A stretch of DNA of 64,000 bases from an uncultured delta proteobacterium (GTDB lineage: Bacteria; Myxococcota; UBA727; VGSZ01): contig CAVZJB010000002.1 in the NCBI GenBank assembly GCA_963775425.1, positions 1-64,000 of the forward strand, in the 5' to 3' direction. The position numbers and the translations under genes are program-made. The notes beneath the pieces are model-generated. The model was not told the origin of the DNA, did not search any database, and saw nothing but the letters and a program-made list of their open reading frames with translations. This document shows, one piece after another, positions 3,054-5,582 of the stretch; positions within the stretch are counted from its first letter, which is position 1; each line of letters starts with the position of its first letter.

Positions 3054-3201
3054 TTCGCGCGCCCCCACACGAAAAGCATACACAGACTCCTAATCTCGAG
3101 GTCGCGGGTTCGAATCCCGCCGGCTGCTCCACATGCAGCCGTAGCTCAGCGGTAGAGCGCGGCCCCTTCGGGGGAACTTGCTTTCCGGACTTGCGCGCGA
3201 A
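3054..3201 (+). ncRNA. YrlA-like (bacterial Y RNA) circularly permuted tRNA mimic
   Basis: T-arm GCGGG-TTCGAAT-CCCGC (3104-3120) comes before a closed acceptor stem CGGCTGC/GCAGCCG (3121-3127/3135-3141, loop TCCACAT), then TA and D-arm GCTC-AGCGGTA-GAGC (3144-3158). Outer stems GAAAAGCA/TGCTTTCC and TTCGCGCGC/GCGCGCGAA close it. It lies upstream of a TROVE-like gene. Confidence 0.85.
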
Positions 3202-3231
3202 TTTCTCTTGGCCCTCCGGGGCCCCCTCTCC

Positions 3232-3310
3232 ACCGGCCAGCCCGCGGCGCTCGGATCGCCGCGCCGCTGAGGTGAGACAGCCCGACGACGACCGTCGCGG
3301 GTTGGCCGGT
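3232..3310 (+). ncRNA. Second structured RNA / long hairpin between the Y-like RNA and the first CDS
   Basis: 18-bp stem ACCGGCCAGCCCGCGGCG / CGTCGCGGGTTGGCCGGT; both deviations from a perfect inverted repeat are G-U pairs on the + strand. Confidence 0.45.
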
Positions 3311-3396
3311 CGATCCCGCCACCAGCGCGCGCCGATCCAGCACCGGCGCGCCTCGCACCGACGCGCCGGAGTCCCCGCAGGCGTCGGGAGGTCGTC

Positions 3397-4161
3397 ATGC
3401 GCGAAGACATGGCCAAGGTCGTCGTCGAGCGCCCGCGCTTCGGGCGCGAGCACGCAAAGCGCGCGGCGCGCAGCGTGCGGCGCAAGAACAACGACGCGCG
3501 CGGCTTCGACGACGCCCCGCGCCGCGGCTCGATGACGCCGTACGCCTCGCGCAAGACCTTCAACGAGCACCTCGGCCCGCTGCGCCGCTTCCTCGCCTCC
3601 CGCCGCGGCACGCCGTGGAACGACGTGTGGTCGGAGATCTGCGCGCGCCTCCGCTCGACGTCGACGACGCAGCGCCACGTGCTGCAACACGTCGCCGGTT
3701 ACGTCGAGCTGCACCCGCGCCTCGACGCGCGCGGCCGCCCGTGGACGCTCGGCTTGGGCGGCCCCTTCCCGCTCACCTCCGGCTCGCCGGTGAACCGCTT
3801 CTACGTCCACCCCGACACCGGCCTCCTCCTCGCCGCGCCGCCGCGGCCGCCGCGCGCGCGCCCGCGCGCGGCACTGCCGGTGGACGTGCACCTCGACGGC
3901 GGCCGCGTCTTCGCCCGCTTCGGCGGCCTCTGGTTCGCGCCGCGCATGGAGCCCGTGCCGAGCCCCTTCGGTGCCTATCGCCTCGGCTCCGGCGAGGGCC
4001 CCTTCGACGTCGTGCTGCGTGCGTCCGTCGACAAGACCGCCGCCGCCGTCGCCCGCGCCGCCTACGGCCGCGCCGACCGCTACGCCGCGGACAAGGGCCG
4101 GCAGCTCTGCAGCCGAGACTTGCGCCACGCCGTCCTCATCAACGAGCCTTCGCCCTCATGA
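3397..4161 (+). CDS. Basic uncharacterised protein ([14 protein letters not shown]...[12 protein letters not shown]...[10 protein letters not shown])
   Basis: 254 aa, GGGAGG Shine-Dalgarno, Arg-rich. Its stop overlaps the next start (ATGA at 4158-4161). Confidence 0.8.
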
Positions 4162-5582
4162 CCAGCCACGAACGGGACGTCCGCCTCTCGCTCTTGAACA
4201 GCCTGCTCACCACGCCGCACCGCGAGCTGACCGCCGTGGCGTCGCTGCACGACGGCATGGTCAAGCGCGACCCGCTCTTCTACGGCCACCTCGCCGCCTG
4301 GTACTTCGACCACGGCGACGTGCGCGACCACAAAGAGGTGTTCGTGGCGTCGCTGTTGGCGTCGTCCATCGAGGAGCATCGCGCGGCGGGCGCGGCGCTC
4401 TTGACGCGCCTGCCGCCGTACCAGATCGCGCGCGTCGTCGACTTCATGAAGAAGCACCTCGGCAAGGTGCCGCGCAGCACGCGCTCGGCCACCAAGCAGG
4501 TGCTCGACGCCCTCGAGAAGAGCTGGGAGCGCTTCAATCGCGCGGCGGTCCGCCAGAAAAAGGCGCTCAAGCACCTGTACGCCACGCTGCACCTCAAGCC
4601 CGGCGCGCGCGCCGACGCCATCTTGTTCAAGGACGACCCGCCCGAGGGCAGCCTCGCGCTCGCGGTGAAGACCCTCGCCAGGGCGCGCGACCCCGACGAG
4701 CAGGCGCGGCTCATCACCGAAAACCGCATCCCCTATCCGGTCGCCATCGGCGCGCTCTCCAAGGTGGAGCCGCCCACGCTGCGCGCGCTGATCGAGGTGA
4801 TGAGCCCGGCGGAGGTGGTGAACAACCTCGGCGCCCTCAAGGAGCGCGGCGCGTTCGGGCACAAGGCCACGAAAAAGCTCATCGACGACAAGCTCAAGGC
4901 CGCCGAGACCGACGGGCGCGTGAGCGCCTTCAAGGCCAAGGCCGCGCTCGACGCCGTCGACGTCGACGAGGACACCGCCGCCCGTTTCGACGCCGTCACC
5001 GACGCCCAGGTGAAGAAGAAGGGCGCCATCACGCGCAGCACCGCGGTGCTCGTCGACAAGTCGAGCTCGATGACCCAGGCCATCGAGATCGGCAAGCGCA
5101 TCGCCGCGATGATCTCCGGCGTCACCACCGGCGACCTCTTCGTCTACGCCTTCGACTCCGCGGCCTTCGCCATCAAGGCCAAGGGCAGGGAGCTGTCGCA
5201 CTGGGAGAAGGCCTTCGCGCTCATCCGCGCCGACGGCTCGACGAGCATCGGGGCGCCGCTGGAGTTGATGCGGCAGGGCGGCGAGCGCGCCGAGCAGATC
5301 GTCATCGTCACCGACGAGGGCGACAACACCGCGCCGCTCTTTCACGACGCCTACCTGCGCTACGCCGACGACCTCATGCTCCGGCCCGACGTCATCATCG
5401 TGCGCGTGGGCTCCACGGCGAGCACCGTCGAGCGCGCGCTGGCGGCGGTGGGCGTGGCGTCGCAGGTGTTCACGTTCAAGGGCGACTACTACTCGCTGCC
5501 GAACCTGATCCCGCTTTTGTCGCGGCCGAACCGCATCGAGCTGCTCGCGGAGATCATGAAGACCAGGCTGCCCACAAGGTGA
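4158..5582 (+). CDS. TROVE/Ro60-like helical domain plus C-terminal vWA protein
   Basis: 474 aa. Helical N-part has TROVE-like segments ([36 protein letters not shown]). vWA MIDAS residues [15 protein letters not shown] and IVIVTDEG. Adjacent to a Y-RNA-like element. Confidence 0.75.

Follow-up and report, generated by a model that had tools for sequence, protein, structure and literature searches.

A likely Ro60-like/Y RNA module of a very divergent clade in an uncultured delta proteobacterium

We analysed positions 1–64,000 of contig C2 (CAVZJB010000002.1) of an uncultured delta proteobacterium (assembly GCA_963775425.1), a stretch of 72% GC, hereafter the window, from a genome of 8.26 Mb that is 94.6% complete. 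Three elements follow one another on its + strand: a Y RNA of the YrlA type (3055..3200), supported by an Rfam match to YrlA, its minimum-free-energy (MFE) fold and a covarying consensus structure; an open reading frame (ORF) with an ATG start for a basic protein of 254 amino acids (aa) (P0001; 3397..4161), which belongs to a large family without known domain; and an ORF for a divergent Ro60-like protein of 474 aa (P0002; 4158..5582), assigned from a model with the Ro60 fold and a conserved MIDAS motif (metal ion-dependent adhesion site). The two ORFs overlap by an ATGA at 4158–4161. A preliminary description of this locus, made from the sequence alone, had named these three parts and the coupling of the ORFs, which our analysis bears out; it had also read the RNA as a permuted, YrlA-like tRNA mimic and the larger protein as a TROVE-vWA-like protein that appears shorter and more divergent than Rsr, and had proposed that the ensemble may be a three-component ribonucleoprotein (RNP).

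An AlphaFold (AF2) model of the 474-aa protein, computed from 39 family sequences (predicted local distance difference test, pLDDT, 83; predicted template modelling score, pTM, 0.70), has a helical ring domain at about residues 1–290 and a vWA domain at about residues 291–474. The twelve best Foldseek matches in the Protein Data Bank (PDB) were all Ro60, Rsr or TROVE entries, phage Ro60 included (E 6e-11 to 1e-7; TMq 0.62–0.69). VIA-align returned ten Ro60 entries at Z 18.2–22.9 over 415–441 residues, whereas the best vWA-only match reached Z 15.8 over 157 residues. The MIDAS is intact (D300, S302, S304, T362 and D386): all of these residues but S302 are invariant among the 39 family sequences, and at least 90% of the sequences keep S302. 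Homologs span 99–100% of the 474-aa length, and hhalign placed the family profile on three canonical cyanobacterial TROVE proteins over 410 colinear columns (probability 72%, E 3.3e-5). Pfam found VWA_2 in 22 of the 39 members, VWA_CoxE in 10 and vWA_Ro60 in 7; a phmmer search of the 474-aa protein against PDB sequences and a search of NCBIfam returned nothing. Because of the whole-length structural matches, the profile comparison and the conserved MIDAS, we treated this protein as a divergent member of the predicted Ro60 fold class, composed of a ring and a vWA domain. The solved Ro60 and Rsr proteins (Deinococcus radiodurans Rsr, 2nvo; Xenopus/human Ro60, 1yvp and 9nen; Thermus phage phiLo, 9l5y) likewise combine a ring with a C-terminal vWA domain carrying a MIDAS, and match the 474-aa protein over its whole length at Z 18–23; they are longer (about 500–540 aa), and identity to the solved chains is 14–18%. 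The protein is thus shorter and far more divergent than Rsr, as first described, and the HEAT-like ring, which the preliminary description had set as a test for the N-terminal domain, is predicted by the model and supported by its whole-length structural matches.

The arms of the tRNA mimic can be read directly from the + strand: a T-arm (3104–3120), a loop-closed acceptor hairpin (3121–3141) and a D-arm (3144–3158). Around them the flanks pair into a terminal helix (3055–3062 with 3193–3200) and a second helix stacked on it (3072–3077 with ~3180–3185), and an extra local hairpin lies at 3163–3174. This permuted order, T-arm, loop-closed acceptor and D-arm on a stem in which the 5' and 3' ends pair, is the YrlA architecture. 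RNAfold gave the same helices in its MFE structure (z -2.46), which 5 of 200 shuffles equalled in energy; folding energy alone is weak evidence for the Y RNA, and strong support comes from comparison with related RNAs. Under relaxed settings, Rfam scanned over 2300–6200 (3.9 kb) matched YrlA (RF02553) to 3073–3187 at 37.3 bits (E 9e-6), the six other matches in that scan having E values of 0.72 or more. A YrlA match, which the preliminary description had proposed to look for in this region, is present below the gathering score, and the RNA ends near 3200 and not at 3320. Neither ARAGORN nor Rfam at gathering level called this RNA. At the place of the GNCGAAN0-1G motif reported for the YrlA stem in the accessible part of Chen 2014 (PMC4201824), the window RNA (~3070–3073) and one relative, locus L003, carry CGAA on the 5' strand, and most relatives carry GTGAAG.

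The window RNA was aligned with 24 upstream RNAs from 22 related loci, 25 sequences in all. The RNAalifold consensus comprises 32 pairs in five helices, with compensatory changes in 19 of the 32 (12.1 ± 1.5 in shuffles). Paired cells amounted to 98.0%, compared with 84.7% in shuffled alignments and 37–48% when partners were slid, and the covariation score was 0.472, compared with 0.193 and 0.079–0.107 respectively; none of 500 shuffles reached the observed values. The window RNA, itself one of the 25, carries all 42 invariant columns of the alignment and keeps the consensus helices save two non-standard pairs. The reading of this RNA as a permuted tRNA mimic of the YrlA kind is thus upheld by its arms, by the Rfam match and by covariation.

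A covariance model built from this alignment, R1, was run on the 80 kept loci of Ro-like genes. At E ≤ 0.01 it gave 336 matches over the 80 loci and the window. Among the 300 matches listed, 299 have the same orientation as the Ro-like gene, and almost all are located upstream of it. At least 75 of the 80 loci have a match, 53 of these loci being outside model building; of the five loci without a listed match, four have less than 350 nt of upstream sequence and the fifth, L035, has about 1.8 kb. That homologous loci carry tRNA-like RNAs, as the preliminary description had anticipated, is therefore borne out. Ten of eleven viral loci also have a match. R1 matched the window once and had a single full-length match in the 8.26-Mb genome, directly upstream of the Ro-like gene; a second match in the genome spans model positions 60–116 only. 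The score of the window RNA itself (119.9 bits) is no independent evidence, since this RNA was among the training sequences. Relatives usually carry several Y-like RNAs per locus, in arrays of up to about 8–10.

These units differ in topology. Among the best 150 R1 matches, 38 follow the strict permuted-tRNA pattern of the window, 53 contain a tRNA of ordinary topology that was called by ARAGORN, with varied anticodons, and 59 are of other kinds, which by eye are mostly degenerate permuted forms with a few stem-only units of 90 nt. In six ordinary-topology units that were folded, a short acceptor stem continues into the conserved Y stem; some units of this type were also called tRNA by Rfam. 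Literature searches returned no description of an ordinary-topology tRNA-like fold set on a Y stem. Units of about 130 nt with D arm, anticodon arm and T arm are found at L031:5226-5355, L014:3716-3846, L008:5107-5236, L070:5316-5446 and L039:4462-4593. Separately, many loci have a Y-like hairpin of ~80–95 nt located ~60–200 nt before the Ro-like start (L031:5850-5933, L022:5716-5796, L045:5840-5922); it may serve as a binding site for autoregulation, or may be a processed Y RNA.

The Ro-like family is large: 2258 proteins were retained at E ≤ 0.001 among 8000 candidates scored, with identities of 55–80%, and the source names of the members listed are 'hypothetical' or 'vWA domain-containing'. 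In a set with one genome per species (GTDB), 598 stretches matched the search pattern, and 579 of these, a lower bound for the set, code for a relative. The 80 loci are mostly cyanobacterial, with Acidobacteriota, Armatimonadota, Burkholderiales, a Clostridia metagenome-assembled genome and others also represented, and eleven viral contigs of 37–390 kb encode a family member at 43–46% identity. A single Ro-like gene is present in the genome of the window, which encodes no Pfam TROVE protein. Searches of 10 genomes from the same family and 27 from the same order gave no Ro-like gene, and one of three genomes of the same phylum gave a weak, partial match (E 6e-6). Because the gene was not found in these 37 genomes, that of the window was probably acquired horizontally. 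The IS66 transposase gene at the contig end, which does not belong to the module, likewise suggests that the region is mobile or acquired.

Of five cyanobacterial genomes checked that carry the divergent gene, three have a canonical TROVE protein as well, encoded at another place. This coexistence argues that the divergent Ro-like proteins form a separate clade and are not fast-evolving orthologs. Upstream of the canonical TROVE genes, R1 matches only with its positions 46–129, inside the tRNA-like part, and not with the terminal stem, which suggests, from comparison of the sequences, that divergent and canonical Ro proteins each have their own stem code. The canonical Pfam-TROVE proteins in question are 533–580 aa long (L179–L183) and have tRNA-like RNAs upstream without the R1 stem. 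Two full-length Ro-like genes occur in each of L011, L039, L042, L049 and L067, the second ORF being 712–721 aa long in L011 and L049.

The genes found on the same strand as the Ro-like gene of relatives, counted over the 80 loci, encode an unknown protein of 285 aa (23 loci), ThiF (20), DUF6847 (14), a paralog of L7/L12 (13), GNAT (12), an AAA ATPase (11), Tpt1/KptA (11), a paralog of EF-Ts (11), an HNH endonuclease (9) and RNA ligase (7), and six loci carry tRNA arrays of 21–39 genes. PADLOC detected no defence-system match above noise. The roles proposed in the preliminary description, RNA quality control or defence against tRNA-cleaving toxins, fit such neighbours as tRNA arrays, Tpt1/KptA and RNA ligase.

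The 254-aa protein has relatives in large numbers: a profile search of 1.84 billion representatives gave 5347 proteins at E ≤ 0.001 and 2191 at E ≤ 1e-30. Its start agrees with the conserved N-terminus of the family, its N-terminal tail is basic, and the GC content at third codon positions (GC3) of the open frame is 0.92. It matched nothing in Pfam, PHROGs or PADLOC, the best NCBIfam match had an E value of 0.16, and the extra parts of twelve longer family members contained no Pfam domain. The structure model (pLDDT 81.7, pTM 0.60) had no Foldseek PDB match at E ≤ 0.001; the best BFVD match was an uncharacterised phage protein (E 1.4e-5, TM 0.35), the ESM Atlas gave unnamed clusters only and the named-cluster search no usable match. 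In a wide VIA search residues 55–150 appeared weakly winged-helix-like (Z 3.4–5.4). TrcR, the repressor of cyanobacterial tRNA operons, was considered as an identity for this protein and rejected, TrcR being described as ribbon-helix-helix in the accessible part of its source (PMC10272220).

Several known systems resemble the module. Y-type RNAs precede the gene on the same strand in Ro60/Rsr loci as they do here; two Y-like RNAs lie upstream of the phiLo Ro60 gene according to the available text of the phiLo paper (PMC12135203). YrlA RNAs, as presented by Chen et al. 2014 (PMC4201824) and in the preprint of Wang et al. 2018 (10.1101/312249), are likewise circularly permuted tRNA mimics, seated on a long stem that the 5' and 3' ends make together, and are encoded beside a Ro60-type gene on the same strand. 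The window RNA differs from them in falling below the Rfam cut-off and in having its own conserved sequence in the terminal helix and internal loop. The Salmonella rsr-yrlBA-rtcBA operon (Hughes et al. 2020, PMC7790460, in its accessible part) similarly links a Ro60-type gene to Y RNAs and, as in relatives of the present module, to RNA-repair enzymes, these being Tpt1/KptA and an Rnl-type RNA ligase in the relatives and rtcBA in Salmonella. Unlike in that operon, RtcB is not adjacent in the window: the RtcB matches of the host genome lie on contigs C14 and C10, the window being on C2. The earlier statement that no rtcB, rtcA or rtcR is recognisable in the window therefore holds for RtcB; RtcA and RtcR were not searched for. 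The cyanobacterial long tRNA arrays, or L-arrays (Santamaria-Gomez et al. 2021, PMC8421152, main text), resemble several loci of our set, in which 21–39 tRNA genes share one strand with an HNH endonuclease gene and RNA-processing or translation genes, and Acaryochloris marina MBIC11017 is common to that paper and to our set (L004). The main text of that paper, supplements and figures aside, contains no mention of vWA, Willebrand, TROVE, KptA or EF-Ts, and unlike the L-arrays the window has no tRNA array. Literature searches, with two likely sources and supplements outside their reach, gave no paper that connects a divergent clade of Ro-like proteins with arrays of Y RNAs and of tRNAs.

Taken together, the predicted fold, the structure of the RNA, its linkage to the Ro-like gene and the distribution of the family make it likely that a minimal Ro60-like/Y RNA module, probably gained by horizontal transfer, is present in the window and belongs to a large and very divergent Ro60 clade. 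By analogy, the Ro-like family would work as Ro60/Rsr works with YrlA: it falls below the Pfam TROVE and Rfam YrlA thresholds and has the structural and architectural features of that pair. Several results weigh against this view. The window RNA does not reach the Rfam YrlA gathering score of 69, and at gathering level none of 47 Rfam matches in 11 related loci was YrlA (46 were tRNA and one an rRNA fragment). Pfam gave a sub-threshold VWA_2 match (E 0.01) and no TROVE on the 474-aa protein, and no TROVE in any of the 39 family members; the family profile found two solved TROVE chains among PDB sequences, weakly (E 0.024). The window has none of the RNA-repair or translation neighbours typical of relatives, so that this copy could be a stranded remnant, and the translation-stress role discussed below is drawn from gene neighbourhood.

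That the three elements form an obligate RNP, in which the 254-aa protein would be an effector or third subunit and the tRNA-like module of the Y RNA would tether it to the Ro-like ring, would account for the ATGA translational coupling, for the basic tail and weak winged-helix likeness of that protein, and for the finding that in 21 of the 80 Ro-like loci a member of its family precedes the Ro-like gene on the same strand, ending 181–1551 nt before the Ro-like start (4213 nt in one case). The other 59 loci nevertheless lack the 254-aa family, as do all eleven viral loci; of the 60 loci whose upstream sequence reaches 3 kb or more, 17 have it and 43 do not. In 80 metagenome loci chosen by the 254-aa protein, a Ro-like gene comes next in 2 of the 39 that offer 1.5 kb or more of downstream sequence, and full Y-RNA matches occur in 3 of the 80. 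Same-strand tRNAs are found in 18 of these 80 loci, six or more of them in 11 of the 18, so that the family lies within tRNA arrays in at least 11 of its own loci, a point in favour of a tethered effector. Among 40 related genomes, three encode the 254-aa family; none of these three has a Ro-like gene, and their loci show no tRNA or R1 match within ~1.5 kb on either side. The complex prediction for the Ro-like and 254-aa proteins gave run scores of 0.46, 0.00 and 0.00, without controls, and speaks neither for nor against binding. We therefore regard the obligate RNP of the preliminary description as unlikely. Because the linkage between the 254-aa and Ro-like genes is real but partial, the 254-aa protein appears, from its gene contexts, to be an optional companion of tRNA and Y-RNA islands and not a defining subunit, and is probably an accessory, nucleic-acid-binding factor. 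In metagenome loci L090, L109, L113, L115 and L133, its homologs lie in or beside same-strand arrays of 12–22 tRNA genes.

It is quite improbable, in our estimation, that the module is a decaying remnant, a fragment of a mobile tRNA-array and RNA-repair island stranded in a host where it does not work. Such an origin would suit the single Y RNA, the lack of the usual neighbour genes, the IS66 transposase gene beside the module at the contig end and the repeat-rich segment 2303–2816, part of which (2749–2780) shows 72% likeness to the Y RNA 3' end. However, both ORFs are intact and of full length relative to their families, the Y RNA has kept every invariant column and, save for the two non-standard pairs, the consensus helices, and the GC3 of the 254-aa frame is in line with the 72% GC of the host. 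Still further from the evidence is a generic vWA/helical protein unrelated to RNA that happens to follow a chance tRNA-like sequence: the weakness of the Pfam result, a VWA_2 match at E 0.01, is what it has in its favour, but the whole-length structural matches to Ro60 stand well above those to vWA domains, at least 75 of the 80 loci have Y-like RNAs upstream on the same strand, and the RNA helices covary, and we attach almost no probability to it.

For the Ro60-like/Y RNA module that we favour, binding, a possible effector and a physiological role can be inferred as follows. By analogy with Ro60 and Y RNAs, the terminal helix and internal loop (3055–3077 with 3180–3200) would bind the Ro-like ring, while the permuted tRNA-like module (3104–3158) would present a tRNA shape without a free CCA end, and could recruit, or distract, a tRNA-handling enzyme or nuclease. 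The ring, again as in Ro60, might engage damaged or misfolded RNAs. Because the neighbours in relatives are Y-like RNA arrays, long tRNA arrays, Tpt1/KptA, RNA ligase and paralogs of L7/L12 and EF-Ts, the system may protect or repair the translation apparatus under stress. A more far-reaching proposal, which we put forward tentatively and consider doubtful, is that the divergent Ro60 clade and its Y RNA arrays constitute a distinct tRNA-centred surveillance or decoy system, in which some units would cage an ordinary tRNA-like fold in a Ro-binding stem. It would be carried along with long tRNA arrays and with phage genomes, and would protect translation from anticodon nucleases or stress; its stem would be a private code orthogonal to the canonical Ro60/YrlA of the same cell, and the 254-aa protein a possible exchangeable effector.

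According to the accessible part of Chen 2014 (PMC4201824), bacterial Ro60/Y RNA biology was mapped from genomes annotated with a TROVE protein, and few YrlA RNAs were seen in cyanobacteria and delta-proteobacteria. The present clade escapes both Pfam TROVE and Rfam YrlA, yet it is found in hundreds of species and on large phage contigs, and in it Y RNAs are physically linked with tRNA arrays and with RNA-repair genes. Its many natural variants of the tRNA-like module make the purpose of the tRNA mimic in Y RNAs more testable, for example in culturable cyanobacteria. The interest lies chiefly in this clade-wide picture; the copy of the window is a compact, three-gene example suited to heterologous reconstitution.

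Additional features were noted in relatives. In 20 of the 80 loci the Ro-like gene is immediately preceded by an ORF of a ~146-aa family (L012:5008-5448, L021:5366-5806, L053:4760-5206), which has no Pfam or PADLOC match; these ORFs were rejected as relatives of the Ro-like protein, to which they have no BLASTP similarity, having clustered with it by linkage only. Downstream of the Ro-like gene in L067, a stretch of 85 nt (L067:8625-8709) reaches the Rfam cut-off for a fragment of large-subunit (LSU) rRNA (archaeal model 1162–1247; 50.3 bits). Because other loci carry paralogs of L7/L12 and EF-Ts, it is conceivable that this piece mimics a portion of rRNA.

In the window, outside the module, the contig start truncates an IS66-family transposase gene on the + strand (1..993; Pfam DDE_Tnp_IS66, E 3.2e-47). 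A gene on the - strand for a four-helix protein of the 23S-rRNA-intervening-sequence (IVS) type (1504–1836) lies between it and the Y RNA, and a convergent gene for a GDT1 membrane protein and a gene for a GntR regulator are located downstream of the module. ARAGORN and Rfam at gathering level detected in the window two ordinary tRNA-Ser genes only, both distant from the module. The scan for promoters gave no promoter-like site, and three terminator-like sites were found for 2.0 expected, none at the RNA ends, which at 72% GC carries no information. The segment 2303–2816, located between the gene for the IVS protein and the Y RNA, holds a direct repeat of ~47 nt in four copies spaced 107–196 nt apart. 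R1 has no match across this region, and the segment at 2749–2780 resembles Y RNA positions 3170–3201; the repeats could represent Y-like units that have decayed or a repeat of the host.

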